Shown: positions 11,660 through 47,116, counted from the first letter of the stretch. The stretch is 64,000 nt of DNA from an uncultured Actinomycetes bacterium (GCA_963785765.1 CAWAWM010000009.1:46281-110280), one strand, 5' to 3'. Program-made: numbers and translations. The notes: a model not told the origin generated them from the letters alone.

Positions 11660-11703
11660 CGCTCCCGCGCCCGAGCTCAGCGCCCAAACTCCGCGCCTGG
11701 CCG

Positions 11704-11740
11704 CGCGGTCTATCAGCCGCGGGCCGGCTGATAGACCGCG
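11704..11740. terminator. 16-bp perfect inverted repeat (CGCGGTCTATCAGCCG / CGGCTGATAGACCGCG, 5-nt loop) between convergent lipB and NUDIX genes
   Basis: Read directly. The right arm and loop contain the last codons and stop of the NUDIX gene. Candidate bidirectional terminator. Confidence 0.5.
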
Positions 11741-12195: not shown

Positions 12196-12206
12196 CGCCC
12201 GCGGCC

Positions 12207-32054: not shown

Positions 32055-33044
32055 TCAACTGGCGGGCTGGGCACCGGCCTGGCGGATCGCCGCGGTCTTG
32101 GCCAGCGCCAGGGCGGTGGGCAGGTCCGGACAGCTGGCGGTGCCCCCGGCGCCCTGGGTGGACGCCGCGCCTGTCGCACAGCCCAGGGCCGTGGCCTGGG
32201 CCAGGTCCAGCCCGCGCAGCAGCCCCGCAATCAGCCCGGCATTGAAGCAGTCGCCGGCGCCGGTGGTGTCGACGGGCCGCACCTCGGGGAGCGCGACGTG
32301 ACGCGGGCGGCCGCCGTCCACGCACAACGCGCCGCGCGCGCCCAGCTTGACGACCAGCCTCGGCCCGGCGGCGGCCAGGACCGCCGTCGCGGCCGCCAGC
32401 GTCGCCTGGCCGCTGAGCCGCAGCACCTCCGCCTCGTTGGGCAGCAACAGGTCGGTCACGGCCAGCGCCGCGCGCAGCCGGTCGTCGCCCCATTGACCTG
32501 ACGGGTCCCAGTTGGTGTCGAGGGAGGTGCCGACGCCTGCCGCTCGCGCGGCCGCGAACAGCGCGGCCAGCCCGGGCCCGAGCGACCGCTCCAGCAGGAA
32601 GTACGAGCTGACGTGCAGATGCCTGGACCTCGCCAGCAGCGCGCCCGGCACATCCTGAACGGTCAGCGTGGTGATGGCACCGGTGGCGGTGAGAATCGCG
32701 CGGTCGGCCCCCTCGGACAGCGCCACCGTCATGCCGGTCGGGACAGCGGGGCGCACGGCCACGGCCGTGACGTTCACGCCCTCCGCCGCCACCTGACCGA
32801 GCATCAGCCGGCCGACCGGGTCGTCGCCCACGGCGGCCACCAGGGCCACCCGCAGCCCGAGCCTGGCCGCGGCCACCGCGGTGATCGCGGCCGACCCGCC
32901 GATCACCAGCGACATGCTGGCCACGATCTTCTCTTGCTGGCCGAACCGCGGCCTGACATCGTCGCCGAGCACGAGCACGTCCGGGTTGCAGTCGCCGACC
33001 ACGAGCAGGTCGGTGTCCCGGACGGGGTCGGCGGGATCGGTCAC
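32055..33044 (-). CDS. PfkB-family sugar kinase (substrate unknown; proposed aminosugar kinase)
   Basis: 329 aa. Motifs GGSAAITA and DTTGAGDCFNAG. GTGA overlap with the DeoR gene. Confidence 0.8.
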   Translation of the reverse strand: MTDPADPVRDTDLLVVGDCNPDVLVLGDDVRPRFGQQEKIVASMSLVIGGSAAITAVAAARLGLRVALVAAVGDDPVGRLMLGQVAAEGVNVTAVAVRPAVPTGMTVALSEGADRAILTATGAITTLTVQDVPGALLARSRHLHVSSYFLLERSLGPGLAALFAAARAAGVGTSLDTNWDPSGQWGDDRLRAALAVTDLLLPNEAEVLRLSGQATLAAATAVLAAAGPRLVVKLGARGALCVDGGRPRHVALPEVRPVDTTGAGDCFNAGLIAGLLRGLDLAQATALGCATGAASTQGAGGTASCPDLPTALALAKTAAIRQAGAQPAS

Positions 33045-33826
33045 GCCGTGATGACCTGAACGCCGGACTCGGTGAACATGGCCGCGTCGTCGGCGCTGAT
33101 CCCGGTGTCGGTGACCAGCACGTCCAGCTCCGCGATGGCGCAGATCCTGGCGAACGCGCGACGGCCCACCTTGGAGCTGTCGGCCGCCACCGCGACCAGG
33201 TCGGCCCGGTCGGCCATCAGCCGGTTGATGCTGGCCTCGCCCTCGTGATGAGCGGTGGCCCCGGCCGCCGCGTCGATCCCGTCGACGCCCAGGATCGCGA
33301 TGTCGAGCGTGACCTGCTCCAGCACGCCGGTGGCCAGCGGGCCGATCATCTCGTAGGACTGCGGCCTGGCCACGCCGCCGGTCACCACGATCTTGATGTG
33401 CTGGCGGACCGCCAGCTCGGTGGCGATGTTGAGCGCGTTGGTGACCACCGTGACGGCGGGCGACGCGGCCCCGGCGGTCAGGTCGGCCCGCATGGCCAGC
33501 GCCCTGGCCACCTCGGTGGTTGTGGTGCCGCCGTTGAGCCCGGCGACCTGGCCTGGCCGGATCAGTCCGGCGGCGGCGGCGCCGATGCGGTGCTTCTCCG
33601 AGGGATGCCGCTCGCTCTTGTACCGCAGCGGCAGGTCATAGTTGATCCCCTGCGCGACGGCACCGCCCCTGATCCTGGTGAGCATCTGCTGGCTGGCGAG
33701 CTCATCGAAGTCGCGCCGCACCGTCGCCGCCGAGACGCCGAGCGCCTTCGCGGCCCGTTCCACCTGCAGCTGACCGTCGGCGGCGAGCAGCTCGAGCAGC
33801 TCATTCCAGCGGCGATACTTGCTCAC
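33041..33826 (-). CDS. DeoR-family transcriptional regulator
   Basis: 261 aa. N-terminal HTH (VERAAKALGVSAATVRRDFDEL) and a DeoR C-terminal sensor domain. GTGA overlap with the aldolase gene. Confidence 0.85.
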   Translation of the reverse strand: MSKYRRWNELLELLAADGQLQVERAAKALGVSAATVRRDFDELASQQMLTRIRGGAVAQGINYDLPLRYKSERHPSEKHRIGAAAAGLIRPGQVAGLNGGTTTTEVARALAMRADLTAGAASPAVTVVTNALNIATELAVRQHIKIVVTGGVARPQSYEMIGPLATGVLEQVTLDIAILGVDGIDAAAGATAHHEGEASINRLMADRADLVAVAADSSKVGRRAFARICAIAELDVLVTDTGISADDAAMFTESGVQVITA

Positions 33827-34686
33827 CTGGGACTGCCCTCCCGGCCGCCCACTGCGCCGAGCACGGCGAGCAGCCGCCGCACCTCCGCCGCGATGGCGTC
33901 CCGGCCCGCCGCGCAGTACCGCCGCGGGTCGACGAGCGCCTGGTCGGCCGCCAGCAGCGCGCGGATCGCCGCTGTGTACACCTTGTTCAGCTGGGTGGCA
34001 ATGTTGATCTTCGTCATGCCGGCGGCGATCGCGGCCGCCAGGGCCTGGTCCGGGACGCCTGACGAACCATGCAGCACGAGCGGGACCGGGACGGCCGCGT
34101 GAATCGCGGCGATCAGCTCCAGGTCAAGAACGGCATCCCGGGTGAGCATCGCGTGCGAGCTGCCCACCGCCACGGCCAGGGCATCCACTCCGGTCGCGGC
34201 GGCGAAGGCAGCTGCCTCGTCCGGCCGGGTCCTGGTCACCGGGTCGTGCGCGCCGTTCTTACCGCCGATCTCGCCGATCTCGGCCTCGACCCAGATCCCG
34301 CGCTCGTGACACCAGCTGGCCATCCCCGCCGTGGCCTGGACATTCGCCGCGTACGGCAGCGTCGACGCGTCGAACATGACCGACCCGAAACCCAGCTCCG
34401 CGGCCTCCTGCACCAGGTCCGCGCTGGTCGCGTGATCCAGGTGCACCACGACGGGCACGTCCGCCGAGCGCGCGATCGCGAGCGCCGCCGCACCGACCGG
34501 CCCCAGCGCCCCGTGGTAGGCGACGCAGTTCTCACTGATCGCCAGCACGACCGGCGCGCCCGCCGCCTCGGCACCGCTGACGATCGCTTCGGCGTGCTCG
34601 ATGCCGATGAGATTGAACGCGCCGACCCCGCGGCCCGCCGCGGGGCCGGCCTGGACCACGATGGCGGCCATCCCGACGGCCGGCAT
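33823..34686 (-). CDS. Class II ketose-1,6-bisphosphate aldolase (tagatose/fructose-bisphosphate aldolase family)
   Basis: The ORF opens at 34920. ATG 34686 overlaps the stop of the kinase gene (TGATG). Motifs VVVHLDHA, EIGEIGGK, GSSHAM, LVLHGSSG. Confidence 0.85.
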   Translation of the reverse strand: MPAVGMAAIVVQAGPAAGRGVGAFNLIGIEHAEAIVSGAEAAGAPVVLAISENCVAYHGALGPVGAAALAIARSADVPVVVHLDHATSADLVQEAAELGFGSVMFDASTLPYAANVQATAGMASWCHERGIWVEAEIGEIGGKNGAHDPVTRTRPDEAAAFAAATGVDALAVAVGSSHAMLTRDAVLDLELIAAIHAAVPVPLVLHGSSGVPDQALAAAIAAGMTKINIATQLNKVYTAAIRALLAADQALVDPRRYCAAGRDAIAAEVRRLLAVLGAVGGREGSPR

Positions 34687-35639
34687 CAGCCCGCCTCGCC
34701 AGGGGCGATCCGGACGCCGCTGAGCAGCTCGTGGTAGTCGGCGTGCTGGAACTCGCCAGCGACGGGCGCGGCCGCCGCGGCGGTCCCGAGCGCCACCGCG
34801 TGCCGCAGCCGCTCCCGCCAGCAACGGCCGAGTACCAGCCCGTGCGCCAGCCCGGCCACCACGGCATCCCCGGCGCCGGTCGGGTTGCCCGGCGTCTGGT
34901 CCGGCGGCGCGGCATGCCACAGCCCGTCGCCGGTGACCGCGAGCAGCCCGTCGGCGCCGAGCGACACCACGACCGACTGTGCGCCCGCGGCCATCAGCTC
35001 GCGGGCCGCGCCGATCACCGCCGCGCGGTCGAAGCCCGCCGGGGTCGACAGCGGCCGGCCCATGCTGCGCTCCAGCTCGGCCAGGTTCGGCTTGACGATC
35101 GCCGGGCCGCCAGGCGCGCCGCGCAGCAGCGCCTGGCCCTCGGCGTCCAGCACGGCCGGCACCGACGCCGTGGCCGCCATGGCGGTCAGCTCGGCGTAGC
35201 TGTCCGCGGGGACCCCGGGCGGCAGGCTCCCGGACAGCACCACCGCCGCGCAGCCGGGCAGCGCGTCCGCGTACCTGGCGCGGAACCGCTGGTACTCACC
35301 CGCCGACACCCGCGGCCCGGGCTCGTTGAACAGCGCGGTCCTGCGGCGCTGATCGTCGACGACGGCGAACGTTCGCCTGGTCTCCCCGGCGATGTCGGTG
35401 AACGCAGCGGGCACCCCCGCCTTGCTCAGCCCGGACCGCACCGCAGCCCCGGTCAGCCCGCCCGCCAGTCCGACGGCCAGCACGTCGGCGCCCAGCGCGT
35501 GCAAGGTACGCGCCACATTGACGCCCTTGCCGCCCGGCCGGGCCGCCGCCGCGGTCGGCCGGTTGACCCCGGACCAGTCGACCCGGGGGACGTGGTGGGT
35601 CACGTCCAGGGCCGGGTTGAGGGTGACGACCAGTATCAC
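34686..35639 (-). CDS. 1-phosphofructokinase-family hexose-phosphate kinase (tagatose-6-P kinase / 1-PFK type)
   Basis: 317 aa. MILVVTLNPALDVTH ... GGKGVNVARTL ... PTGAGDAVVAG. Confidence 0.8.
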   Translation of the reverse strand: MILVVTLNPALDVTHHVPRVDWSGVNRPTAAAARPGGKGVNVARTLHALGADVLAVGLAGGLTGAAVRSGLSKAGVPAAFTDIAGETRRTFAVVDDQRRRTALFNEPGPRVSAGEYQRFRARYADALPGCAAVVLSGSLPPGVPADSYAELTAMAATASVPAVLDAEGQALLRGAPGGPAIVKPNLAELERSMGRPLSTPAGFDRAAVIGAARELMAAGAQSVVVSLGADGLLAVTGDGLWHAAPPDQTPGNPTGAGDAVVAGLAHGLVLGRCWRERLRHAVALGTAAAAAPVAGEFQHADYHELLSGVRIAPGEAG

Positions 35640-35645
35640 GGCTGC

Positions 35646-36578
35646 TCAGCCCGGTTTGGCTGGGGTGAGGATGACCGAGCGGCTCAGGTTCCTGGGCCGG
35701 TCGGGGTCCAGGTCACGGTCCCGCGCGGCGGCCGCCGCGAGCCGGTGGACCAGGACCAGCTCGGCCATCGGGTCGCCGGCAGCCTGCCTCGCGACGCCGC
35801 CCGCGGCGGCGATCTCGTCGGTGAGCCCGGCCGGGGCCTGCCCGAGCAGCCATACGACACTGCCAGGCCTGGTCACCGCGATCGGCCCGTGCCGGAACTC
35901 CATCGCCGGGTAGGCCTCGGTCCACAGGCCCGCGGCCTCTTTGAGCTTGAGCGCGGCCTCGCTGGCCAGCCCGCACGTCCAGCCGGTGCCCAGGAAGGTG
36001 AACTGGCCGGCGCCGGTCAGCGTGGCGGGCAACGGGACATCCAGCATGCGCCGGGCCGCCGCCGCAGCCGGGCCGATGTCCTCTCCGAGGTGCGCGCGCA
36101 GCAGGGCCAGCTCGGAGGTGGCGAACCTGGTCTGCACCACGGACTGCTCGTCGGCGAACTCCAGCGCGATCACCGCGCCCGCCGCCGTCGCGACCGGACT
36201 GTCCGCCGCGGCGGTGATGGCCACCGTCGCCGTGGACCCGTCCACCCGGGCCAGCAAATCCAGGATCTCGGTGGTCGTCCCCGACCTGGACAAGATGACC
36301 ACCCGGTCATAGCGCCGGCCGGCGGGCATCTCGGAGGCGGCGAACGCGTCGGTCTCGCCCTGCCCGGACGCCTCGCGCAGCGCCGCATACGACTGCGCGA
36401 TGAACCAGGACGTCCCGCAGCCCGCCACCGCGACCCGCTCACCCGGCGCCGGCAGCATGGCAGCCACGTCCGCGGCCAGCCCGGCCGCCCGCAGCCAGCA
36501 GTCCGGCTGGGACGCGATCTCCGCGTCGATACTGCCGGTCCCGGCAGCCCTGTTACTCTCCCCGCTCACCCTGCGCAC
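35646..36578 (-). CDS. SIS-domain sugar-phosphate isomerase/deaminase (AgaS/FrlB-like)
   Basis: 310 aa. EIASQPDCW ... VAVAGCGTSWFIAQ, with a second SIS-like half. Shorter than E. coli AgaS. Confidence 0.7.
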   Translation of the reverse strand: MRRVSGESNRAAGTGSIDAEIASQPDCWLRAAGLAADVAAMLPAPGERVAVAGCGTSWFIAQSYAALREASGQGETDAFAASEMPAGRRYDRVVILSRSGTTTEILDLLARVDGSTATVAITAAADSPVATAAGAVIALEFADEQSVVQTRFATSELALLRAHLGEDIGPAAAAARRMLDVPLPATLTGAGQFTFLGTGWTCGLASEAALKLKEAAGLWTEAYPAMEFRHGPIAVTRPGSVVWLLGQAPAGLTDEIAAAGGVARQAAGDPMAELVLVHRLAAAAARDRDLDPDRPRNLSRSVILTPAKPG

Positions 36579-36642
36579 CTCAACTCTCCAGGTTCCTTAC
36601 TGATAGGGATCACTGGCCCGCGGACCACCGGCGGCTGCGCTG

Positions 36643-37554
36643 TCATGTGCCGGTGAGCCCGGTACTGGCGACTGACCTGACGAAGTACCGTTGCGCCGCG
36701 AAGAAGATCGCCAGCATCGGCACCAGGCTCATGACGTTGCCGGCCATCAGCAGCGTCCACTCAGTCGAATGCGCGCTCTGGAAGGTGGCCAGCCCGAGCG
36801 GCAAGGTCATCTGGTTGGTCGAGTCGATCACGATGAGCGGCCAGAGGAAGTTGTTCCACGAGTCGAGGAAGGTCAGCGCGGCCAGCGTGGCCAGGGCCGG
36901 CGCCGACAGCGGCAGCACGATGCGCCACAGGACGGTCAGCCTGCTCGCCCCGTCCACCCGCGCCGACTCCTCATACTCGATCGGCAGGGTCCGGAAGAAC
37001 TGACGCAGGAAGAAGATCCCGAAGGCGGTCGCCGCGTTGGGCAGGATGAGCGCGCCGATGTGATTGACGCCCACCGCTTCCAGCACATTGGTCCCGAGCC
37101 ATTTGGTGATGATGAACTGCGGGATCATCGTCACCTGGAAGGGCACCATCAAGGTGGCCATGATCACGGCGAACAGGACCCCGCGGCCCAGGAACCTGAA
37201 GCGCGCGAATCCGTAGCCGGCCAGCGCGCACAGCACCAGGTTGCACAGCACGGTGACCACGGCCACCACCGAGCTGTTGATGAAGAACCGCCCGAACGGA
37301 GCTGCCTTGAGCGCGTCCGAGTAATTAGCCGGCCTGAGCACGTGCGGGGTGAGAATCGGCGGGAAGTGCAGCGCCTCGGCCGGGGTCTCCAGGGACGTCA
37401 CGATCAGCCACACGAACGGCAGGATCAGCACCAGGCAGGCGGGCAGCAGCACCAGGTGCCAGGGGCTGAACGGCAGGCGGCGCCTGCGGCGGCCGGGCGC
37501 CAGGCGGGGCCCCTGGGCGGCGGCCTGGGTGGTCACGCTCACCGACGCGCTCAT
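36643..37554 (-). CDS. Carbohydrate ABC transporter permease (MalG-like)
   Basis: 303 aa, six TM helices, EAA-like loop (ESARVDGASRLTVLWRIVLP). ATGA overlap with the upstream permease. Confidence 0.9.
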   Translation of the reverse strand: MSASVSVTTQAAAQGPRLAPGRRRRRLPFSPWHLVLLPACLVLILPFVWLIVTSLETPAEALHFPPILTPHVLRPANYSDALKAAPFGRFFINSSVVAVVTVLCNLVLCALAGYGFARFRFLGRGVLFAVIMATLMVPFQVTMIPQFIITKWLGTNVLEAVGVNHIGALILPNAATAFGIFFLRQFFRTLPIEYEESARVDGASRLTVLWRIVLPLSAPALATLAALTFLDSWNNFLWPLIVIDSTNQMTLPLGLATFQSAHSTEWTLLMAGNVMSLVPMLAIFFAAQRYFVRSVASTGLTGT

Positions 37555-38492
37555 GACCGGTAGTACGTGAAGCGCCTGCCGACCCGGAACTGGATCGCAG
37601 TGACCACGATGATAACGAGGAACAGGAGGTAGGCAATGGCGGACGCGTAGCCGAAGTTGAAGTTCACGAAGGCCTGCTCGAAGAGGTAATAGACCAGCAC
37701 GGTGGTGGCGTTGAGCGGGCCGCCCTGGGTGCTCAGGTACACCTCATCGAAGAGCTGCAACGCGTTGATGGTCAGCCAGACGGCCAGGAACAGCGACGCC
37801 GGGCTGAGCAGCGGCAGCGTGATCCGGCGGAAGGTGGCCCAGCGGCCCGCACCGTCGGTCGCGGCCGCGTCGATGAGGTCGGCCGGGATGCCCTGCAGCG
37901 CCGCCAGGTAGATCACCACCGAGAAGCCGCTCCAGCCCCAGATCGTCATGATCACGATCACGTACAGGGCCTGCGACGGGGAGTTGAGGAACTGCTGCTG
38001 CGGGATGCCGACCAGGCCGAGGAAATAATTCACCAGGCCGTAGGACGGATCGAACAGCCAGATGAACACGATCGCCTCACTGATCGTGGAGATCGCCATC
38101 GTCGCGTACGCGGCGGTCCGGTACAGCGAGATGAACCGGATCTTCCGGTTCATCGCCACCGCCAGGAACAGGCCGACCACCATGGTGCCCGGCACGAACA
38201 GGGCCGTATAGACAATGGTGTGCTCGATCGCCTGGCCGACCACCGGGTCGTGCAGCAGCGCGCGGTAGTTACGCAGCCCCACGTACGGGGTGCTCGGCGA
38301 GAGCAGGTTGTTCTGCTGGAAGGACATGATCGCCGACCAGACGATCGGCACCGCGCCGAACAGCAGGATGATCGCCACGCCCGGGGTCACGAACGCCCAC
38401 CCGGTGAAGTGCTCCGACCGGGCTACCCGGCGGCGCGACCTGGAGGCAGCGCTCTGGCTTCGGCGCCGCAGCGATGCGGAAGGTGCGGCCAC
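37551..38492 (-). CDS. Carbohydrate ABC transporter permease (MalF-like)
   Basis: 313 aa, six TM helices, loop DAAATDGAGRWATFRRITLP. Confidence 0.9.
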   Translation of the reverse strand: MAAPSASLRRRSQSAASRSRRRVARSEHFTGWAFVTPGVAIILLFGAVPIVWSAIMSFQQNNLLSPSTPYVGLRNYRALLHDPVVGQAIEHTIVYTALFVPGTMVVGLFLAVAMNRKIRFISLYRTAAYATMAISTISEAIVFIWLFDPSYGLVNYFLGLVGIPQQQFLNSPSQALYVIVIMTIWGWSGFSVVIYLAALQGIPADLIDAAATDGAGRWATFRRITLPLLSPASLFLAVWLTINALQLFDEVYLSTQGGPLNATTVLVYYLFEQAFVNFNFGYASAIAYLLFLVIIVVTAIQFRVGRRFTYYRS

Positions 38493-38493
38493 G

Positions 38494-39789
38494 CTACTGG
38501 CTGGGGTTCGCGAGAACCTGGTTGACCTGCGCGGCGGCGCTGGAAAGCGCGGCGGCAGGCTGGGTCTTGCCGAGCAGCACGGACACGACCATGGTGCCGA
38601 GGATCTGGGAGATCTTCGGATAGGTGGCGATCTGCGGGCGGGCCTGATGGACGTTGCCCAGGTTCGTGATGAAGGTGTCCACGCCGGGCAGCGCCTTGTC
38701 CATCTGCTGCGAGAACCCGGCCGAGTTGGTCACCGAGGCCCGGGTCGGCAGGTCGCCGGTGGCCAGCGAGAAGTACCTGACCTGGGCCGGGGCGGTGAGC
38801 CAGAGCAGGAACTTCTCCGCCGCCGCCACCTTGGCGGAGCCGTTGTTGAAGATCACCCAGTTGTCCGGGCCCGAAATGGTCTGGTGACCGCCGCTCGTGC
38901 CCGGATAGGACGGCATGACCTGCACGCCATAATGCACGTTCGGGAAGGTGGACAAGTCCCAGGGGCCGGTGACCACCATGCCGATCCTGCCTGAGTTGAA
39001 CAGAGTGTCGTAAGCCGAGTCGGTCGGGTCCAGGTACATGGAGTGGTCGGTGACGGCCATCTGCCGCAGGGTGTTCAGCGACTGGAGCCCGGCGGCCGAG
39101 TCGAAGGCGGCCTTCTTGTTGTCCGGGGTGAGCAGCTTGCCGCCCGCCTCCCACAGCAGCGCCTCCCAGTGCCACACGGTGTCCTCGTTGCCCGGCGTGA
39201 CGTAGGCCGTCCCGTACTGCTTCTTGGCCGCGTTGGTGAGGCGCTGGGCATCGGCCGTGAACTGGGACCAGGTCCAGTCCGGCCCGGGCGGCTGCAGTCC
39301 AGCCTGGGCGAACAGCGTCTTGTTGTAGACCACCGCCAGGTTGTCGACGAGGGCCGGGATCCCGATGACCTTTCCGTTGACGGTCGCCACATCCCGCTCG
39401 CCCACCCAGAAGTCGTTCCAGTTGACACCGGGCCGTTGCACCACGTTGGTCAGGTTGACCACCTGCGGGATCTGGGCCACGTTCGGCGCCCAGGAGCCGT
39501 ACAGGTAGGCGATGTCGGGCGTGCTGCCGCCGCGCACCGCGGTCAGCACTTTCTGCAGCGAGTCGTCGTTGTCGACGTACAGGCTGGTCACGGTCTGGCC
39601 GGTCTGCTTCTGGTACTCGCTGAGCAGATGAGCGAACGCCTTCGCCTCGGTCTGGGTGTAGCCCTCCCAGATCTGGATGGCGGTCCCGCTGCTGCTCGAG
39701 CTGCCGCCGCCGCTGCCGCTCCCGCAGGCCGCCAGTCCGAGCGCGACCAGTGCGGCTGCCACTGCCGTCTTGAGCCAGTAACTTCTCAT
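38494..39789 (-). CDS. Extracellular sugar-binding lipoprotein (ABC family-1 SBP)
   Basis: 431 aa. Lipobox LGLAAC followed by a Gly/Ser linker. No ATPase gene in the locus. Confidence 0.9.
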   Translation of the reverse strand: MRSYWLKTAVAAALVALGLAACGSGSGGGSSSSSGTAIQIWEGYTQTEAKAFAHLLSEYQKQTGQTVTSLYVDNDDSLQKVLTAVRGGSTPDIAYLYGSWAPNVAQIPQVVNLTNVVQRPGVNWNDFWVGERDVATVNGKVIGIPALVDNLAVVYNKTLFAQAGLQPPGPDWTWSQFTADAQRLTNAAKKQYGTAYVTPGNEDTVWHWEALLWEAGGKLLTPDNKKAAFDSAAGLQSLNTLRQMAVTDHSMYLDPTDSAYDTLFNSGRIGMVVTGPWDLSTFPNVHYGVQVMPSYPGTSGGHQTISGPDNWVIFNNGSAKVAAAEKFLLWLTAPAQVRYFSLATGDLPTRASVTNSAGFSQQMDKALPGVDTFITNLGNVHQARPQIATYPKISQILGTMVVSVLLGKTQPAAALSSAAAQVNQVLANPSQ

Positions 39790-40089
39790 GCCGCCCTCTG
39801 TCTCTGTGGGCCTGACCGGACATACGACGACTCATGCGCGAATAGTCGATGTTTCAGACATCATTGCGCGCGGCTACCGGTCGGTGTCAAGCCCGTCGGC
39901 AGGACTTCGCGTTCATCGGACCGACTCGAAATAGTGACAATACTCTCTATAACGGATCCCGGTCACCAGTCATGTGATTCTCCCTAGCTCCTTCAGCACC
40001 AGAACACTTCTCCAGTCACTCTTCAGCTAGCTCGCCGTCGCTCTCCAGGGCTGCAATATTCTGCGTGCTCTTGCTCATAGACATACAAA

Positions 40090-41403
40090 ATGCGACACTG
40101 TCGAGCTGTGATCAAGGTTGCGTTCATCAGCGCCGGCAGCATCGAGTTCACCCGCAACGTCGTGACCGACTTGTGCAGCTACCCCGAGTTCCGTGGCGGC
40201 GTGCACCTTTCCCTGCACGACATCAGCGCCCCCCGCCTGGCCTTTGCCGAGCGGCTGGCCAGGCAGATCGTCGCGCAGACTGGGTCTGGTGCCACCGTGA
40301 CCGCCTCGCTCGATCGCCGGGCGGCGGTCAAGGGCGCCCAGTACGTGATCAACGAGGTCCAGGTCGGCGGCTACGACGCGACCCGGGCGGACTTCGACAT
40401 CCCGGCTCGCTACGGCGTCCGCCAGACCATCGCCGACACGCTCGGCATCGGCGGCATCTTCCGCGGCCTGCGCACCATCCCGGTGGTGGTGGGGCTCGCC
40501 CGCGACATGCTCGACCAGTGCCCGGACGCGTACCTGCTCAACTACTCCAACCCCATGGCCATGCTCCCCTGGGCGGTCTACCAGGGCACCGACTTCGGCC
40601 GGGTATTCGGCCTGTGTCACTCGGTCAGGGACACCCACAAGTTCCTGGCCGGGCTGGTCGGCCTGGATCCCGCCGAGGTCACCTTCCGCACCGCCGGCTT
40701 CAACCACCAGGCGTTCGTGCTGACCTTCGAGCACGCGGGCCAGTCCCTCTACCCGCGGCTTACCGAGATCATCGACGGCTCGCCCGAGCTACAGCGCCGG
40801 GTGCGGGTCGAGCTGTTCCGCAGGTTCGGCTACTTCCCGACCGAGTCAAGCGAGCACTCGGCCGAGTACGTGCCCTGGTTCATGCGGCACGACGGCGAGA
40901 TCGAGCGGTTCCGGATCTTCGTCGGCGATTACCTGGCCCGCTCCGAGGAGAACCTGCGCGAGCTCGAGTCGCTGCAGGTCCAGCTGGAGGCGGGCACGCC
41001 GCTCGACCTCGAGCCCACCGACGAACTTGCCTCGCAGTTCATCCACTCCCTGGAGACCGGCACCGGCCGCGAGCTGTACGTCAACGTCCGTAACGACGGG
41101 CTTATCACCAGCCTGCCCGGCGAATGCTGCGTCGAGGTGCCGTGCGCGGTCGGCGCGGGCGGCGCCAAGCCGCAGGCCATCGGCGCATTGCCGGCCCAGC
41201 TGGCCGCGCTCAACCGGACCTTCCTGAACGTGGTCGAGCTGACCGTGCGGGCCGCCCTCGACGGCCGCAGGGACCACGTCTACCAGGCCGCCCTGCTCGA
41301 CCCGAACACGGCGGCCACGCTGACCACGTCGCAGGTGATAGCGATGTGCGATGACCTGCTCGAAGCTCACCGGGCGCTGCTGCCGCCCGCACTGGCCGGC
41401 TGA
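40090..41403 (+). CDS. GH4 NAD(+)/Mn-dependent glycosidase (alpha-galactosidase/alpha-glucosidase family)
   Basis: KVAFISAGSIEF Rossmann N-terminus, NYSNPMA, GLCHSV. The start may be GTG 40108 instead of ATG 40090. No clear RBS for either. Confidence 0.85.
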   Translation: MRHCRAVIKVAFISAGSIEFTRNVVTDLCSYPEFRGGVHLSLHDISAPRLAFAERLARQIVAQTGSGATVTASLDRRAAVKGAQYVINEVQVGGYDATRADFDIPARYGVRQTIADTLGIGGIFRGLRTIPVVVGLARDMLDQCPDAYLLNYSNPMAMLPWAVYQGTDFGRVFGLCHSVRDTHKFLAGLVGLDPAEVTFRTAGFNHQAFVLTFEHAGQSLYPRLTEIIDGSPELQRRVRVELFRRFGYFPTESSEHSAEYVPWFMRHDGEIERFRIFVGDYLARSEENLRELESLQVQLEAGTPLDLEPTDELASQFIHSLETGTGRELYVNVRNDGLITSLPGECCVEVPCAVGAGGAKPQAIGALPAQLAALNRTFLNVVELTVRAALDGRRDHVYQAALLDPNTAATLTTSQVIAMCDDLLEAHRALLPPALAG

Positions 41404-41445
41404 AGCGGCCCGCTCCCGGCAGGCCCGCACCACGAAAGAGGCGCC

Positions 41446-43314
41446 ATGACAGCCAGGCAGGCACTGCGATGGTCGGTCATCCGCGGGAGTGAGCGCGGCA
41501 GGCGCCGGGCGCCGCGGATCGTGGCGACGGCTGGCCTGACCGTCATGCTGGCCGCGGGCCTGGCGGCCGGGCCAGGCATCGCTCTGGCGCGGCCGGGCGC
41601 CACGGTCACGGCCACGGTGACCGCCGCGCGAACCGGCGCCACCGTCACCGCTGCTCGGACCGGCGCCACGGTGACCGCCGCGCGGACGCGCCAGGTCAGC
41701 CGGACAGCGCCGATCCCGCGGCCCGGCCATCGGGGCAGGCTGCGGGTGACCGGGCGGCTGCGCGACGGCGGCACGGTGACCGCGGCCGGGCTGTCCTGGC
41801 GGCCGCCGCGGCTGCCGCGCGGTGACCGGCTGCTGAGCTTCGAGGTCGGGTACTACTGGCGGTCCTGCCCGGCGCACGGGTCCTGCAAGACCGCGCCGGA
41901 CAGCACCGCGACGCCGTTCGCGGCCCGGTCCTACATCGTCGGCCACGCCGACACCGGCCAGCGGCTGAAACTGACCGAAACGGCGACCGAGGTGGTCGAG
42001 ACCGATCCGGCCACGTTCTCGTTCAGCGTCATTCGTGCCTCCGTGAGCGCCGAGACCAGCCGGACCGCGGGCGGTTACCGCGCCGGCCTGCCGCCGCGGA
42101 CCGAGTTCGTAAACGGGACGCCCGAGGCCCGCACCGCGTCCCGCGAGGAGTACTTCCAGGTCGATCCGCCGCACTACAACAGCCGTGACGGCCGGCCTGT
42201 GCAGCGGTACCGGATCGACGAGCGGCGGTGGCGGGCGCTGCCGGCCAGCGGCGTGTTCTACACCGGCACGCTCAGCATCGGCCGGCACCGGGTCACGGTC
42301 CGAACGGCCAACCTGGCGGGCGCGACCACGACGGCGTTCGGCTGGCGAGTGGTGCCCATGCCCGCACCGGCCCGGTGTCGCGGCACCTGCTGGTATCCGC
42401 CGCACCTGGCCGCCAACCACCGCCCGATGCGCTGGGACTGGCAGATCGGCCGGGTCACCCCGCTGCAGCGCACCGGTACACGGGCCGTCGACATCTACGA
42501 CATCGACGGCTTCCTGACCACCAGGGCGCAGGTACACGCGATCCACACCAGCTGGCAGGCGAGCACGCTGCCGCACCCCAAGGCGGTCTGCTATATCGAC
42601 CTGGCCTGGGAGGACTACCGGCCGGATGCCAGCCCAGGCCGCCGCGGCGGCTACTTCCCCGCCGCGGCGCTCGGCAACGTCTACTACGGATACGCCGACG
42701 AGCGGTGGGTCGACTTCCGGCAGCTGGACGCGCTGAAGCCAATGCTCAACGAGCGGATCGGGATGTGCGCGCGGAAGGGTTTTGACGCCATCGAGCTCGA
42801 CGACATCGACAGCTTCGACCCGCCCTCGACCACCGGGTTCCATCTCACCCCTGGCGACGCGCAGAACCTGCTCGCCTACGCCTTCAACCAGATCCACCGC
42901 GACGGCATGACCGGCCTGTGGAAGAACTCCCCGTACCTGAGCTGGTGGGGACGGCGTTACGCGGACGGCGCGGTGGTCGAGGAATGCTACGTCGGGCACG
43001 CCTGCTTCGCTTCGCAGCTACGCGGCAGCAAGCAGTACGGGATCACCTGCACCGCGCTGTCCGGCCGCACGCCTTGCGGCTGGGACGACTTCAGCACCGA
43101 CGCCACCGTGAACCAGCCGTCCGGCAAGTGGGTGGGCGAGGCTGAGTACGACGCGGATCATTACGTCTGCAATCCGGGCCAGCACTGCCCCCAGGCCCGG
43201 CTATTCAGCACGTTCTGCCGGGTCGTGTACGCGCCGCCGTCCGGGTTCGCCGCCGTCAAGTTCGACGTGGACCTGGACGGGAAGATGTTCTACCCGTGCC
43301 CGCGCGGCCGGTGA
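41446..43314 (+). CDS. Secreted protein with C-terminal GH114-like (endo-alpha-1,4-polygalactosaminidase) domain
   Basis: 622 aa. Arg-rich signal peptide ending ALA. ATVTAARTG repeats, then ~280 aa unrecognised. C-terminal AVDIYDIDGF ... CYIDLAWEDYRPD ... ERWVDFR ... GFDAIELDDIDSF reads as the GH114 TIM-barrel signature as I recall it. Confidence 0.7.
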   Translation: MTARQALRWSVIRGSERGRRRAPRIVATAGLTVMLAAGLAAGPGIALARPGATVTATVTAARTGATVTAARTGATVTAARTRQVSRTAPIPRPGHRGRLRVTGRLRDGGTVTAAGLSWRPPRLPRGDRLLSFEVGYYWRSCPAHGSCKTAPDSTATPFAARSYIVGHADTGQRLKLTETATEVVETDPATFSFSVIRASVSAETSRTAGGYRAGLPPRTEFVNGTPEARTASREEYFQVDPPHYNSRDGRPVQRYRIDERRWRALPASGVFYTGTLSIGRHRVTVRTANLAGATTTAFGWRVVPMPAPARCRGTCWYPPHLAANHRPMRWDWQIGRVTPLQRTGTRAVDIYDIDGFLTTRAQVHAIHTSWQASTLPHPKAVCYIDLAWEDYRPDASPGRRGGYFPAAALGNVYYGYADERWVDFRQLDALKPMLNERIGMCARKGFDAIELDDIDSFDPPSTTGFHLTPGDAQNLLAYAFNQIHRDGMTGLWKNSPYLSWWGRRYADGAVVEECYVGHACFASQLRGSKQYGITCTALSGRTPCGWDDFSTDATVNQPSGKWVGEAEYDADHYVCNPGQHCPQARLFSTFCRVVYAPPSGFAAVKFDVDLDGKMFYPCPRGR

Positions 43315-43387: not shown

Positions 43388-44026
43388 CTAGAGCTCGACG
43401 CTGGTGCCAGGCTCCAGGCGGCTGAAGGTGCCGCCGGACGGCCCGGCGGCTAGCGTCATGAGGTTCTGCATGAGCCCGAGCCCGTTGGCGTTCAGGAGCC
43501 CGTCGTGGATCGCGTAGCCGCGCTGCGGGTCCACCGCGCGGCCGTAGTCGATCATCTCGGATACCTTGAGCCAGGGCGCGTTGGCCGGCAGCAGCAGGGT
43601 CGGCACCGGGTCTTCCGGCACCGTCAGCGCGTCGCCGGGGTGGAAAATCTCGCCGTCGACCGCGAATCCGGTGTTCGCGACGATCGGGATGTCCCGGTGG
43701 ACCTCCGCGTGCTTCTGGCCGTAGACGTGCACGTCGAATCCGGCGGCCTGGAAGACGTCACCGTGGGCGACCGTATGGACTCGGCCGCCGAAGTCCGCGT
43801 ACTGGCTGGCCACCGCGGCGTTGGTCCACACCTCGAGTTCCGGGTTGCCGGTCATCGCCGTGCGGAGGAGCTCGTTACTCACATGATCAACGTGCTCGTG
43901 AGTGATCAGGACCGCGTCCGCGACGGCCAGCGCGTCCGGCCCGCTGAAGACGCCCGGATCGATAACCAGCGCCGCGCCGTCCTTCTCCAGGCGAACGCAC
44001 GCGTGTCCGAGCTTGGTCAGTCGCAT
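43388..44026 (-). CDS. MBL-fold metallo-hydrolase
   Basis: The ORF opens at 44248. ATG 44026 follows GGGAG. MRLTKLGHACVRLE ... LITHEHVDH. Confidence 0.75.
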   Translation of the reverse strand: MRLTKLGHACVRLEKDGAALVIDPGVFSGPDALAVADAVLITHEHVDHVSNELLRTAMTGNPELEVWTNAAVASQYADFGGRVHTVAHGDVFQAAGFDVHVYGQKHAEVHRDIPIVANTGFAVDGEIFHPGDALTVPEDPVPTLLLPANAPWLKVSEMIDYGRAVDPQRGYAIHDGLLNANGLGLMQNLMTLAAGPSGGTFSRLEPGTSVEL

Positions 44027-44252
44027 CGTCACTCCCTGCCGCTGAATCCCGGTGCTGCTGAATCCTGCATCCCCGCCCTCGCCGCTGACGATACCGAGCG
44101 CGGTCAGGTCGCTGGCTGCCGCCCCGGGCGGAACGCGAAGCTGGCGCCGCGACGCGCGGGCCGGGCGGCGCGCGAACCCGGCGCAGTGCAAACCAGGCGG
44201 AGCATAGGCCGGGCGGCGCGCGAAGCTGGCGGAGCGCGGGCCGGACACCGCA

Positions 44253-44294
44253 GTCAGCGGTCAGCGCTCAGTGGTCAGTGGTCAGCGGTCAGCG
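44253..44294 (-). repeat. Six tandem heptamers (minus strand C(C/G)(G/A)CTGA) beginning with the TetR stop codon
   Basis: Plus strand reads gtcagcg gtcagcg ctcagtg gtcagtg gtcagcg gtcagcg. The stop TGA is at 44289-44291. Confidence 0.8.
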
Positions 44295-45152
44295 GGACGC
44301 CAGGCCGCGCAGCAATTCGTCGACCACGCGACGGGCGTAGCCATCTTCGATCGGCTGCAGCCCGGACCTGCTCCGGATGAGCACAGCGCCGCTCAGCATG
44401 TACATCGCTGCCTCGATGTCGATCCCCTCGCGGAGCTCTCCGGTGCCAACGCCGCGGCGCAGCACCGACCGGATCACCTCGCGCCTGGGCTCGATGACCG
44501 TCTCGTTGTAGCGGGCCATCAGGCGCGGGTATTTCGCGCCCTCCCCCTGCAGCAGCGCGAACTGCCTGGCCCGCCGGGGATCGGCGGACTCCAGGCACAG
44601 CGCCTCCAGCAGAGCGATCAGGTCGCTGCGCACCGACTTGCCTTTCGGCTGCGGCAACGGGACCCGCAGCCCGGCCAGTGCGTCGAGGAGCAGCTCCTCC
44701 TTGCCCGGCCAGCGCCGGTAAATAGTGGCCTTGCCGACGCCCGCCCGGGCGGCCACCTTCTCGATGCACAATCCCTCCGGGCCCGACTCGGCGAACAGGC
44801 TCAGCGCTGCGTCGATGATCGCCCGGTCGGCGTCCTCGCTGCGCGGTCGGCCGGGCCGCCGGCGTTCGGCAGCCAGCTTCGGGTCGTCGGCCGCCGCGGC
44901 TGAGTCCACGGTGCTAGCTGAGTCCACGGTGCTAGCTGAATCCACGGTGCTAGCTGACACCGTGGCAGCTGAGTCCTCGGTGCTAGCTGAGTCCACCGTG
45001 GCAGCTGAGTCCACCGTGCTAGCTGAGTCCACCGTGGCAGCTGAGTCCTCGGTGCTAGCTGACTCCGTGCTGGCTGACACCGTGCTAGCTGACTCGGTGC
45101 TAGCTGACTCCGTGCTGGCTGACACCGTGGCGGCGTTACCTCGGCGCGTCAT
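44289..45152 (-). CDS. TetR-family transcriptional regulator with ~80-aa Ser/Thr/Ala/acidic repeat N-terminal extension
   Basis: The ORF opens at 45410. ATG 45152 overlaps the MFS 3' end by 17 nt. HTH is IEKVAARAGVGKATIYRRWPGKEELL. Confidence 0.85.
   Translation of the reverse strand: MTRRGNAATVSASTESASTESASTVSASTESASTEDSAATVDSASTVDSAATVDSASTEDSAATVSASTVDSASTVDSASTVDSAAAADDPKLAAERRRPGRPRSEDADRAIIDAALSLFAESGPEGLCIEKVAARAGVGKATIYRRWPGKEELLLDALAGLRVPLPQPKGKSVRSDLIALLEALCLESADPRRARQFALLQGEGAKYPRLMARYNETVIEPRREVIRSVLRRGVGTGELREGIDIEAAMYMLSGAVLIRSRSGLQPIEDGYARRVVDELLRGLASR
44898..45131 (-). repeat. About 13 tandem 18-nt units (plus strand GCTGAGTCCACGGTGCTA and variants) encoding (SASTVD / SAATVD / SASTES)n
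   Basis: Read directly. In frame within the TetR N-terminus. Confidence 0.9.
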
Positions 45153-46881
45153 GGGTCCTGTCCTCGATGCGCCCGGCCGTAACGGGTACCGGGACCGGTG
45201 CGCCAGGAGTGGCGGCGCGGTCGCGGTCCGTGCCGGTCCGGCCGTGGCCGCCTGCGATCTGATCGCGGCCGCTAGCGGTGCCTGGGTAGGCGGCGACGCC
45301 GGCCTCGCCGACGGTGGCGGCCTCGCCGGTCGTGGCGGCCTCGCCGGCGGCTTCGGTGCCTGACGGCACCGGCCGGCCAGGCATCCAAGCCCAGATGGCG
45401 ACCGAGCCAACCACCGCGATGATCACCGAGATCAGCGCGGTCACGTGCATGGCATGCACGAACGCGGCGTTGGCCGCGGCCAGCAGGCCGTTCCCGGCCG
45501 GGCCCAGCTGCTGCGCGATCGCCTGGGTCTGCGCGATCGATGCGGTAGCGGCGGTGCGAGCGGCCGGCGACAGCGCGCTGAGCTGCGGCGCGAGCTGGCC
45601 GCGGTAGGCCTGGGCCAGCACCGAGCCGAGCACCGCCACGCCGAGCGCGACCGCCACCTGCCTGGACGTGTTGGTGATCGCGGATCCGGCGCCGCTGCGG
45701 CTTCTCGGCACCACCGACATCACGGCCTCGGTGGCGGGCGGCATGACGCTGCCCATCCCGGCGCCCTGGATGAAGAAGATCACTTCAAGGACCCAGATCG
45801 GGGTACTGGTCCCGAGGAAGTGATAGCCGACCAGTGCGGTCGCCACCATCAGCACCCCGGTAGTGCAGACCGCCTTCGGGCCGAACCGCTTGACCAGCCC
45901 GGCACTCCGCGTTGAGGAGATGAGCTGGCCAGCAGCCAGCGGAATGGTCAGCAGGCCAGCGTGCAGCGGACTGTAACCGCGCACGTTCTGCATGTAGAAG
46001 CTGATGAAGAAGTAGACCCCGGCCATCGCGAAGAAGACCAGCGCGATCGCGGCGGCCGCGGACGACAGCCGCGGATCGCGGAACAGCCGCACATCGAGCG
46101 ACGGATTGGGGATCCGGCTCTCGTACCACCCGAAACCCACCAGCACGGCCAGCCCGCCCACGACCGGCACCAGCACGTCACCGCGGAGCCACGAGCCCGT
46201 GTCCCCGCCCTGGATGATCCCGTACACCACGAGCACCAGGCCGGCGATCGACAGCAGCACGCCGAGGTAATCGATCTTCCCCGGATTCGGGCTCTTGGAC
46301 TCCGGGACGATCAGCATGATCGCGACCACGCCGACGGCGGTCAGCGGCACGTTGATCAGGAAGACCGATCCCCACCAGAAGTGGTCGAGCAACAGCCCGC
46401 CCGCGATCGGGCCGACGGCGATCGCCACGCCGACGGCCGCGGCCCAGATGCCGATGGCCCGCGCGCGCTCCCGCGGATCGAAGACGTTGGTGATGATGGA
46501 CAGTGTCTGCGGCATGACCGCCGCGCCGCCCAGGCCCATCGCCGCCCGGGCCAGGATCAGCTGCTCGGGCGAGTGCGCGTAGGACGAGACCAGCGACGCG
46601 ATGCCGAACATCGCCATGCCGATCATCAGCATGCGCTTGCGGCCGATCCGGTCGCCGATGACGCCAAAGGTGAACAGCAGCCCGGCGAACACGAGCGTGT
46701 AAGAGTTGATCGCCCACTCAAGCTGGCTCTGGCTCGCGCCCAGGCCGCCTAGCGGCTTGGGCTCGGAGATCGTCTTGAGGGCGATGTTCAGCACGGTGTT
46801 GTCGAGGACGATTGCCACCAGGCTGATGATCAGGACGCTGAGGATGAGCCATCTGCGTCGCTGAATGAGCTGGGAATCCAT
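45136..46881 (-). CDS. MFS drug:H+ antiporter (DHA2 / EmrB-QacA type, 14 TMS)
   Basis: The ORF opens at 46962; I prefer ATG 46881. MDSQLIQRRRWLILSVLII ... GDRIGRKRMLMIG. Long unstructured C-terminal tail. Confidence 0.9.
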   Translation of the reverse strand: MDSQLIQRRRWLILSVLIISLVAIVLDNTVLNIALKTISEPKPLGGLGASQSQLEWAINSYTLVFAGLLFTFGVIGDRIGRKRMLMIGMAMFGIASLVSSYAHSPEQLILARAAMGLGGAAVMPQTLSIITNVFDPRERARAIGIWAAAVGVAIAVGPIAGGLLLDHFWWGSVFLINVPLTAVGVVAIMLIVPESKSPNPGKIDYLGVLLSIAGLVLVVYGIIQGGDTGSWLRGDVLVPVVGGLAVLVGFGWYESRIPNPSLDVRLFRDPRLSSAAAAIALVFFAMAGVYFFISFYMQNVRGYSPLHAGLLTIPLAAGQLISSTRSAGLVKRFGPKAVCTTGVLMVATALVGYHFLGTSTPIWVLEVIFFIQGAGMGSVMPPATEAVMSVVPRSRSGAGSAITNTSRQVAVALGVAVLGSVLAQAYRGQLAPQLSALSPAARTAATASIAQTQAIAQQLGPAGNGLLAAANAAFVHAMHVTALISVIIAVVGSVAIWAWMPGRPVPSGTEAAGEAATTGEAATVGEAGVAAYPGTASGRDQIAGGHGRTGTDRDRAATPGAPVPVPVTAGRIEDRTHDAPR

Positions 46882-46973
46882 GGGGCCCTTCACAGCTGCC
46901 GGGAAGGCCTGGCCTGCCGGCGGTGTAGTAGCCGGCACCCGCCGCTGCCCGGCGCCCGGCACTGCTTCATAAC

Positions 46974-46994
46974 GATACGAAACGTCATCGTATC
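46974..46994. promoter_or_regulatory. Inverted repeat GATACGA-n7-TCGTATC upstream of the MFS-TetR operon
   Basis: Read directly, in a GC-poor patch 93 nt upstream of the MFS start. Candidate TetR operator. Confidence 0.4.
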
Positions 46995-47116
46995 ATAATC
47001 ATGGCGCGAGGCGCCAGGCGCCAAAGTGCCTGGCCGGCTATCCGCGCCAGGTTACGCGTGTCATTATCGAAATGTCCGGGGACGCCGTAGGAGCGCCTCG
47101 AGACGTGGAGGACGTT

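Follow-up and report, generated by a model that had tools for sequence, protein, structure and literature searches.

Which polymer is taken apart by a secreted glycoside hydrolase of family GH114, and where its products go, are the questions raised by a ten-gene cluster at positions 32055-43314 of a 64,000-nt stretch of high-GC actinomycete DNA (~70% GC; uncultured Actinomycetes bacterium, GCA_963785765.1, CAWAWM010000009.1:46281-110280; hereafter the window). Our answer, which we consider probable on the basis of sequence comparisons, is that the ten genes, under the control of a DeoR regulator, serve the catabolism of alpha-1,4-linked galactosamine (GalN) polymers, candidates for which would be de-N-acetylated galactosaminogalactan, a Pel-type polymer and poly-GalN. 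Genes were called from open reading frames (ORFs) and their translations, and domains were assigned by Pfam and NCBIfam scans; the gene content and domain families, which were observed directly, comprise eight minus-strand genes and a divergent plus-strand GH4-GH114 pair:

38494-39789, minus: solute-binding protein (SBP), a lipoprotein; SBP_bac_8, 116 bits, and SBP_bac_1, 116 bits; lipobox VALGLAAC
37551-38492, minus: ATP-binding cassette (ABC) permease, MalF/UgpA-like; PF00528 (BPD_transp_1); UgpA, GlcT and MalF models
36643-37554, minus: ABC permease, MalG/UgpE-like; PF00528 (BPD_transp_1); UgpE, GlcU and MalG models
35646-36578, minus: double-SIS protein; PF01380; GlmD/GlmS-isomerase type
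34686-35639, minus: PfkB kinase of the 1-phosphofructokinase (1-PFK)/LacC family; TIGR03168, 298 bits against a cut-off of 216
33823-34686, minus: class II ketose-bisphosphate aldolase, 287 aa; PF01116, 270 bits
33041-33826, minus: DeoR-family regulator, AgaR-like; HTH_DeoR and DeoRC
32055-33044, minus: ribokinase-like PfkB sugar kinase; PF00294, 181 bits
39790-40089: intergenic control region, flanked by the SBP operon and the divergent GH4-GH114 pair
40090-41403, plus: GH4 glycosidase; PF02056, 171 bits, and PF11975, 171 bits
41446-43314, plus: secreted GH114 protein, 622 aa; PF03537 at residues 329-610

These genes, coordinates and domains agree with a first-pass annotation of the same DNA, and the motifs quoted there (GCGTSW, HLDH, LVLHGSSG, DTTGAGD, DIYDIDGF and GFDAIELDDIDSF) were all found in the translations. 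That annotation had also described the minus-strand genes as separated by gaps of 1-6 nt or overlapping. This holds for six junctions, namely those from the SBP to the first permease gene (+1), from the first to the second permease gene (-4, ATGA), from the SIS gene to the 1-PFK-family kinase gene (+6), from that kinase to the aldolase gene (-1, TGATG), from the aldolase to the DeoR gene (-4, GTGA) and from the DeoR to the ribokinase-like PfkB gene (-4, GTGA), but not for that between the second permease and SIS genes (+64). For the aldolase we took as start the ATG at 34686, which forms a TGATG with the stop codon of the kinase gene, in preference to the GTG at 34920 of the longest ORF. On the plus strand the GH4 and GH114 genes are separated by 42 nt. 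Two absences that had been claimed were borne out as well: the cluster has no ATPase gene, with no MalK-type match by tblastn anywhere in the 64-kb window, and, as regards a GalNAc-6-phosphate deacetylase, no NagA homologue was found by tblastn, either in the window or in any of 80 loci that were retrieved with the GH4 protein as query (10-kb flanks, each locus from a different species-level genome; cited below by L numbers).

We propose that the exported GH114 enzyme would cut the cationic polymer outside the cell to short GalN oligomers, which would be imported by the lipoprotein SBP and the two permeases, powered by a shared MsiK-like ATPase from elsewhere in the genome. The cytoplasmic NAD+/Mn2+-dependent GH4 enzyme would free GalN from these oligomers and the ribokinase-like PfkB kinase would convert it to GalN-6-phosphate (GalN-6-P). 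The GlmD-like double-SIS enzyme would turn GalN-6-P into tagatose-6-phosphate (tagatose-6-P) and ammonia, the 1-PFK-family kinase would form tagatose-1,6-bisphosphate, and the class II aldolase would split the latter into dihydroxyacetone phosphate (DHAP) and glyceraldehyde 3-phosphate (GAP). The DeoR regulator would repress both divergent units via TTGCNCGAA-type boxes until a pathway intermediate builds up. Within this scheme the substrate specificities, all of them, are inferred, as are the regulation and the origin of the ATPase.

The most informative result is the way in which parts of the pathway are displaced in related clusters, a pattern that was observed directly. The clusters in question are anchored by orthologous GH4 proteins, 61-72% identical (68-69% for the clusters with AgaS or AgaZ). 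A true AgaS (TIGR02815, 490 bits; identity to the E. coli protein 46-48%) replaces the SIS protein in L063 and L065, which are otherwise homologous clusters and also encode KbaZ and a class II aldolase. AgaZ/KbaZ proteins (57-61% identical to KbaZ; TIGR02810, 653 bits against a cut-off of 569) are encoded in L050, L063 and L065, where the gene for the 1-PFK-type kinase is missing. L033 is without the class II aldolase and has a LacD/DeoC-type aldolase beside the 1-PFK kinase. The ribokinase-like PfkB kinase is exchanged for a ROK kinase in L007, L039, L043, L045, L072, L076, L052, L064, L066 and L050, for a BadF/BcrAD-family kinase in L063 and L065, and for another PfkB kinase in L054. AgaS, AgaZ and AgaY account for the steps from GalN-6-P through tagatose-6-P to tagatose-1,6-bisphosphate in the Aga pathway, and LacC-type kinases have been proposed as substitutes for AgaZ (PMC4694137). 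Because AgaS, AgaZ/KbaZ and a LacD-like aldolase replace the window-type parts, the displacements lend support to a tagatose/GalN route and point to the conversion of GalN-6-P to tagatose-6-P. In L054 the place of the SIS protein is taken by a NagB/AgaI-type, non-SIS deaminase (L054:12372-13127), encoded between a PfkB kinase and a second GH4 enzyme, which makes this a third family at the deaminase step.

The SIS protein itself is not a member of the AgaS family as judged from the TIGR02815 model (24.8 bits against a cut-off of 529), and BLAST matches with E. coli AgaS were only fragmentary; its best NCBIfam matches are GlmS and GlmD. When structures in the PDB were ranked with a profile of 27 sequences, the archaeal GlmD/glucosamine-6-phosphate (GlcN-6-P) deaminases scored highest (2cb0, 116 bits; 2dec, 110), followed by the Thermotoga maritima GlcN-6-P deaminase 1j5x (100), the GlmS isomerase domain (~80), NagB-II (76), AgaS-like proteins (42-52) and FrlB (3eua, 29.5), whose E. 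coli representative is 24% identical to the SIS protein. Because the profile ranks GlmD and the deaminases at the top and FrlB lowest, the protein is placed by sequence on the aminosugar-6-phosphate deaminase side and far from the deglycases; a grouping with FrlB-type deglycases, which would have spoken against the pathway, was thus not seen (29.5 bits for 3eua versus 116 for 2cb0). Its predicted reaction is the conversion of GalN-6-P to tagatose-6-P and NH3. The description of this protein as AgaS-type in the first-pass annotation proved wrong for its sequence, which is GlmD/GlmS-like, and apt for the step that it occupies, where true AgaS takes its place in L063 and L065; its equivalence to AgaS would follow from this displacement, which is evidence of context. 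The protein has two SIS repeats and retains the residues that correspond to Lys485, Glu488 and His504 of GlmS (motifs ALKLKE and FRHGP). At the position of the Schiff-base Lys603 of GlmS there is an arginine, Arg300, that is invariant in the window protein and 26 homologues, while archaeal GlmD keeps Lys. We considered whether this replacement is common to AgaS and rejected the idea, as AgaS has Gln or Lys at this position in the alignment.

The three remaining enzymes of the proposed intracellular route have been assigned at the family level. The 1-PFK-family kinase passed TIGR03168 and scored 277 bits on the 1-phosphofructokinase model, and its 180 bits on the LacC models lie below the cut-offs of 410-469; we predict that it is a tagatose-6-phosphate kinase. 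The aldolase, which is 35% identical to E. coli KbaY, has the class II fructose-bisphosphate aldolase (FBA) as its best NCBIfam model and scored 215.9 bits on TIGR00167 (cut-off 215.6), 210 on the GatY model (cut-off 383) and 164 on the KbaY model (cut-off 542), the last two below cut-off. It is predicted to be a tagatose-1,6-bisphosphate aldolase yielding DHAP and GAP. No NCBIfam equivalog scored above its cut-off for the ribokinase-like PfkB kinase, our predicted galactosamine 6-kinase.

These scores bear directly on the possibility that the cluster serves alpha- or beta-linked glucosamine (GlcN) oligomers, with GH4 releasing GlcN, the PfkB kinase making GlcN-6-P, the SIS protein forming fructose 6-phosphate (Fru-6-P), and the 1-PFK kinase and class II aldolase acting as a private PfkB/FBA pair. 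We regard this as unlikely. It would explain why the SIS profile is highest on GlcN-6-P deaminases (2cb0 116, 2dec 110, 1j5x 100 and NagB-II 76 bits), why the aldolase is best matched by class II FBA and why the kinase reaches 277 bits on the 1-phosphofructokinase model, and there is a precedent in csnREFGHK, in which GH4 is coupled to GlcN oligomers (PMC6097792). However, a dedicated kinase and aldolase would be redundant if the product were Fru-6-P, and AgaS and AgaZ/KbaZ, known only from the tagatose/GalN route, are found in clusters with orthologous GH4 (68-69%). Furthermore, the neighboring secreted enzyme belongs to GH114 and is not a chitosanase, and the GH4 enzyme is MelA-like, that is, of the galacto and alpha type.

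The product of the gene at 40090-41403 had been proposed to be a GH4 enzyme, and it matched both Pfam domains of that family (PF02056 and PF11975). It scored 537 bits on the alpha-galactosidase model NF011657 (cut-off 486), which is a subfamily model, not an equivalog, and does not fix the substrate. In a full-length alignment with E. coli MelA the protein shows 41% identity and the motifs FISAGS, NP, GLCHS and FNH coincide, and the Rossmann and Cys/His metal-site motifs are conserved between the two. No signal peptide is visible in the translation. We therefore regard it as a putative cytoplasmic, MelA-like enzyme of the NAD+/Mn2+ type, and predict that it acts as an exo-alpha-galactosaminidase on imported oligomers. 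Its orthologues that are at least 61% identical adjoin aminosugar-6-phosphate deaminase and tagatose modules.

The SBP, 70-89% identical within the clade, and the two permeases would form a CUT1-type sugar ABC importer whose predicted ligands are GalN oligosaccharides. We assume that it is energized by a shared MsiK-like ATPase encoded elsewhere; eleven related clusters have a MalK-like ATPase gene inside them (L046, L049, L052, L054, L057, L064, L068, L069, L073, L033 and L075). Several actinomycetes other than Trebonia have a second GH4 paralog inside the cluster, 35-39% identical to the window GH4 (L049:11318-12664, L054:13238-14557, L057:7940-9259, L063:4226-5566, L065:4437-5780 and L066:4434-5768). 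The one copy scanned, that of L065, scored 343 bits on the alpha-galactosidase model, below its cut-off. The presence of a second GH4 suggests two linkage or residue specificities, such as GalN and galactose.

The resemblance to MelA leads to another explanation, plain use of alpha-galactosides, which we consider quite improbable. According to this, GH4 would be a genuine alpha-galactosidase whose substrates are melibiose, raffinose or galactosyl oligomers taken up by the cell, the galactose would be phosphorylated at C6 and isomerized by the SIS protein to tagatose-6-P in a tagatose-6-P pathway independent of the phosphotransferase system (PTS), and GH114 would either have no connection with it or attack stretches rich in galactose. 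The score of GH4 above the alpha-galactosidase cut-off and its 41% identity to MelA fit this explanation, as does the fact that AgaS-family proteins were once annotated as tagatose-6-P ketose/aldose isomerases (the names of 3i0z, 3odp and 3c3j). In addition, galactosaminogalactan also holds alpha-1,4-linked galactose (PMC12054363). What it leaves unexplained is that three families of aminosugar deaminases fill the step in relatives (GlmD-like, AgaS and NagB/AgaI-like). To our knowledge, moreover, galactose-6-phosphate isomerases of the SIS type are not known, nor are bacterial 6-kinases for galactose in the PfkB, ROK or BadF families. The preference of the GH114 enzymes of known activity for de-N-acetylated GalN also argues against it (PMC12054363).

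As had been predicted, the C-terminal domain of the secreted protein matches the GH114 hidden Markov model (HMM; PF03537, Glyco_hydro_114), with 112 bits against a cut-off of 27 at residues 329-610. A Pfam match alone is insufficient for this assignment, because PF03537 also captures members of the newly split family GH191 (PMC12054363). In a PDB search with a profile of 26 orthologues the sole matches were Ega3 (6oj1/6ojb, E 2.7e-13) and the Fusarium solani enzyme FsGH114 (9ep6, E 1.3e-7), and a search with the single sequence likewise matched only these entries; no GH191 structure (2aam, Env-GH191) appeared in either search at E values up to 1. Asp452 (D452) and Glu512 (E512) align with Asp189 and Glu247 of Ega3 and are invariant in the 26 orthologues, so that both catalytic residues are kept; in Ega3 these have been verified by experiment as the nucleophile and the acid/base, respectively (PMC12054363). 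Judged by these alignments the C-terminal domain is GH114 proper, closer to GH114 than to GH191, and the protein is predicted to be an endo-alpha-1,4-polygalactosaminidase that acts on de-N-acetylated GalN stretches, for which the GH114 enzymes of known activity have a preference (PMC12054363). In its RRR motif and its hydrophobic stretch rich in Ala, the N-terminus resembles an export signal.

Between the signal and the catalytic domain is a region of ~230 aa that is conserved among orthologues and contains Cys residues; it had no Pfam match and no PDB sequence match at E values up to 10. The AlphaFold2 model of the full protein (26 orthologues) was poor, with a mean predicted local distance difference test (pLDDT) score of 49.5. 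Its best fold match was Ega3 and its N-terminal part matched tandem FN3 domains, so the ~230-aa region may be all-beta and FN3/Ig-like. The proteins retrieved in a search with the GH114 protein were close orthologues without exception (identity 67% or more), and orthologues carry the NCBI name "endo alpha-1,4 polygalactosaminidase". The linker after the signal peptide contains a 27-nt tandem repeat (41611-41687; 2.9 copies, 82% matches) encoding ATVTAARTG peptide units, and no majority residue is present there in the alignment of the 26 orthologues.

Most of the 80 loci belong to soil- and peat-derived metagenome-assembled genomes (MAGs) of Streptosporangiaceae or Trebonia-like organisms; one locus, L062, is that of the cultured strain Trebonia kvetii 15TR583, which has the full cluster. 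For the comparison of gene content we defined a close set of 42 loci with adequate flanks and GH4 at least 73% identical. The first-pass annotation had asked whether GH114, GH4, SIS and aldolase genes occur together in other actinomycetes, and in the close set they do. GH114 directly follows GH4 in 33 of the 42 loci; the SIS gene is present in all 42, the aldolase and SBP genes in 41 each, the 1-PFK kinase gene in 40 and that for the ribokinase-like PfkB kinase in 33.

The linkage of GH114 to the catabolic genes also survives rearrangements and flank changes in at least 35 species-level genomes. In L068, for example, GH114 is divergent from a SIS-ATPase-DeoR-GH4 unit, in L024 and L029 an extra secreted protein is encoded between GH4 and GH114, and in L008, L028 and L059 the SIS-kinase-aldolase block is inverted. 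The right flank of the window recurs only in L001, L008, L011 and L028 and the flanking genes mostly differ elsewhere. Because the content is conserved while the flanks mostly differ, the cluster is kept as a unit, and its conservation was observed directly. In distant actinomycetes (GH4 61-72% identical), including Nocardioidaceae, Propionibacteriales, Actinoallomurus, Actinophytocola and Streptomyces sp. L7, the core persists and GH114 is usually absent, and below ~60% GH4 identity (L073, L074 and L077-L079) the association is gone. As GH114 is absent from 9 of the 42 close loci and most distant relatives, the core does not depend on it; GH114 is an accessory, specific to one clade, of a more widespread core for GalN glycosides.

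Other genes occupy the vicinity of GH4 in some of these loci. A secreted protein of ~580-600 aa adjoins GH4 in L024 (L024:11310-13049) and L029 (L029:~11416-13095), where it lies between GH4 and GH114, and in L033 (L033:12581-14395), where GH114 is absent. It had no Pfam or NCBIfam match and may act on the same polymer as an unclassified depolymerase alternative to GH114. Distant homologues are found at L069:17392-19392 and L046:494-2059; that of L069 is 29-31% identical and has a right-handed beta-helix and NPCBM. An 857-aa CBM35/CBM6 protein with an unassigned catalytic part adjoins the SIS gene of an Actinoallomurus MAG (L058:1742-4315). In certain loci without GH114, GH4 is directly followed by an aldehyde dehydrogenase gene (L037:11335-12780) or by a short-chain dehydrogenase gene (L066:11334-12110 and L073:11284-12060), and in L057 (no GH114) a short-chain dehydrogenase gene (L057:9372-10139) is ~2.4 kb downstream of GH4.

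In the window the cluster is embedded in a conserved actinobacterial core region. Its left flank (window 1-32000) consists of housekeeping genes (pepA, E2 acyltransferase, lipA, DUF4191, glnA, glnE, a second glnA and nadE), and its right flank (43388-48088) encodes a metallo-beta-lactamase (MBL)-fold protein, a TetR regulator, a major facilitator superfamily (MFS) protein and PanB. Scans of the window for consensus promoters and terminators gave nothing above chance, and an Rfam scan of it matched no family.

Another explanation would be that GH114 trims a Pel- or galactosaminogalactan-like exopolysaccharide of the organism itself, as do PelA, Ega3 and Sph3, and merely adjoins a GalN or alpha-galactoside operon. 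The characterized hydrolases of galactosaminogalactan and Pel indeed serve biosynthesis and remodeling of the polymer (PMC12054363), and GH114 is dispensable for the core in many relatives. We nevertheless find this very hard to believe: the window is devoid of genes for exopolysaccharide synthesis, searches around the cluster revealed neither a synthase nor a deacetylase nor export genes (the examined flanks being housekeeping), the GH114 gene follows that for GH4 on the same strand after 42 nt, and its linkage to the catabolic genes persists through the rearrangements and flank changes in at least 35 species-level genomes. Use of fructosamines (Amadori products) by an frlBONMD-type system, in which the SIS protein would be the FrlB deglycase, the PfkB kinase FrlD and the ABC system the importer, has next to nothing to recommend it, since the overlap in genes (an ABC importer that lacks an ATPase, a SIS protein, and a PfkB kinase with 27% identity to FrlD of E. 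coli) is offset by the SIS profile scores (29.5 bits on FrlB 3eua versus 116 on GlmD), by the lack of any tblastn match to E. coli FrlB in the window or any of the 80 loci, and by the fact that GH4, GH114, the 1-PFK kinase and the aldolase would have no role. The pathway for poly-GalN or galactosaminogalactan that had been put forward in the first-pass annotation is thus supported, the GH114 HMM, the comparison with FrlB and the co-conservation all being in its favor.

The regulator was examined together with the divergent control region. The best NCBIfam model of the DeoR protein is AgaR (NF040755; 187 bits, below the cut-off of 260), E. coli AgaR is 33% identical to it, and its membership of the DeoR family is clear. 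Alignment of 55 orthologous SBP-GH4 intergenic regions revealed conserved boxes, two of them close to the start of the SBP gene (~39833-39866 and 39884-39893) and a further one ~15 nt upstream of the GH4 start (40061-40078). The box TTGCNCGAA has 28 forward occurrences in the 1.06 Mb of loci, 24 of which fall within 11.8 kb of intergenic regions, so that it is ~190-fold enriched in the divergent promoter regions. The copies in the window are ATGCGCGAA at 39834 and a degenerate CTTGCTCATA at ~40068. We regard the conserved boxes as candidate DeoR operators.

Several points weigh against a pathway for GalN polymers. By homology alone the GH4 enzyme would be an alpha-galactosidase (41% identity to MelA, score above the NCBIfam cut-off) and the SIS protein is closest to GlcN-6-P deaminases, not to AgaS, while the models for the kinase and the aldolase cannot separate tagatose from fructose substrates. 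The operator copies of the window itself are degenerate, and GH114 is missing from 9 of 42 close and nearly all distant relatives. Finally, only three GH114 enzymes have a known activity and no bacterial GH114 has been made in (soluble) recombinant form (PMC12054363).

A broader reading, on which we are somewhat more doubtful than confident, is that the cluster represents the first complete bacterial route for alpha-1,4-galactosamine polymers, with three undescribed activities and interchangeable secreted depolymerases in relatives. The activities would be a GH4 exo-alpha-galactosaminidase, a galactosamine 6-kinase of the PfkB family (ROK or BadF in relatives) and a GlmD-like GalN-6-P deaminase displacing AgaS, and the depolymerases would be GH114, the unclassified beta-helix protein or the CBM35 protein. 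Galactosaminogalactan is a virulence and biofilm polymer of Aspergillus and Pel is part of the Pseudomonas biofilm matrix, and enzymes degrading them are sought as anti-biofilm tools. If true, our reading would explain how abundant actinomycetes of acid soil and peat (Trebonia-like Streptosporangiales) use a fungal or bacterial cationic exopolymer for carbon and nitrogen; it would supply candidates for exo-acting and kinase activities without precedent in their families, and it would give the poorly understood GH4 of the chitosan csn system a testable parallel. As the full cluster is present in cultured T. kvetii 15TR583, the hypothesis is directly testable. In the part of the literature covered by our search we found no paper linking GH114 to import and a catabolic pathway, and no description of a GH4 alpha-galactosaminidase or of the catabolic fate of released GalN oligomers; bacterial GH114 enzymes remain elusive and uncharacterized (PMC12054363).

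Each part of the cluster can be compared with a known counterpart. Like Ega3 of Aspergillus fumigatus, FsGH114 and the enzyme of Pseudomonas sp. 881 (PMC12054363), the window GH114 enzyme has PF03537 with the nucleophile Asp and acid/base Glu kept. Its similarity to Ega3 is low (E ~1e-8, or ~1e-13 with a profile), and its catalytic domain differs in having large insertions and many conserved Cys residues. Unlike known GH114 enzymes, it has a 230-aa N-terminal region of no known family and is encoded in a catabolic operon, not in a cluster for polymer biosynthesis. The GH4 enzyme is 41% identical to MelA from end to end and has its Rossmann fold and Cys/His metal-site motifs, but its partners are aminosugar-6-phosphate deaminases and tagatose enzymes instead of a melibiose permease, and its predicted substrate is an alpha-GalN glycoside.

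The proposed intracellular route resembles the Aga pathway of E. coli, Shewanella and streptococci (PMC4694137) in its DeoR-type regulator, GalN-6-P deaminase/isomerase, tagatose-6-P kinase and class II tagatose-bisphosphate aldolase, and the relatives L063, L065 and L050 hold true AgaS and/or AgaZ/KbaZ. It differs from that pathway in that uptake is by an ABC importer with a cytoplasmic kinase and not by a PTS, in having no AgaA deacetylase, in its GlmD/GlmS-like deaminase and 1-PFK/LacC-type kinase in place of AgaS and AgaZ, and in that its substrate would be an oligomer needing a glycosidase.

In its logic the closest known system is the chitosan system of Streptomyces, csnREFGHK with CsnA, of which we think it reasonably likely that the cluster is the alpha-galactosamine counterpart. 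The csn genes provide an ABC importer working with MsiK, a GH4 enzyme and a kinase for (GlcN)2-3, so that the products of a secreted chitosanase are imported by CsnEFG-MsiK and processed by the GH4 enzyme CsnH, whose activity is only presumed, and the kinase CsnK (PMC6097792; bioRxiv 10.1101/2023.09.20.558697). A precedent for partly de-N-acetylated substrates of GH4 is ChbF, which acts on monoacetylchitobiose-6-phosphate (PMC9402603). The two systems would share a secreted endo-hydrolase directed at a cationic polymer of de-N-acetylated hexosamine units, an importer of the CUT1 ABC type that relies on an ATPase encoded elsewhere (MsiK in csn), a cytoplasmic GH4 enzyme with a sugar kinase, and a repressor that acts on the importer operon as well as on the secreted enzyme. 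They differ in polymer and secreted enzyme (beta-1,4-GlcN and a GH46-type chitosanase in csn, GH114 in the window), in regulator (ROK-type versus DeoR) and in kinase (ROK versus PfkB, although relatives of the window cluster use ROK), and the descriptions of csn cited here include neither a deaminase nor a second kinase nor an aldolase, all of which the window cluster has. The components of the cluster (a tagatose route of the Aga type, an importer of the CUT1 type, a secreted endo-hydrolase and a DeoR repressor) are all of kinds already known, and its overall logic has been seen with chitosan.

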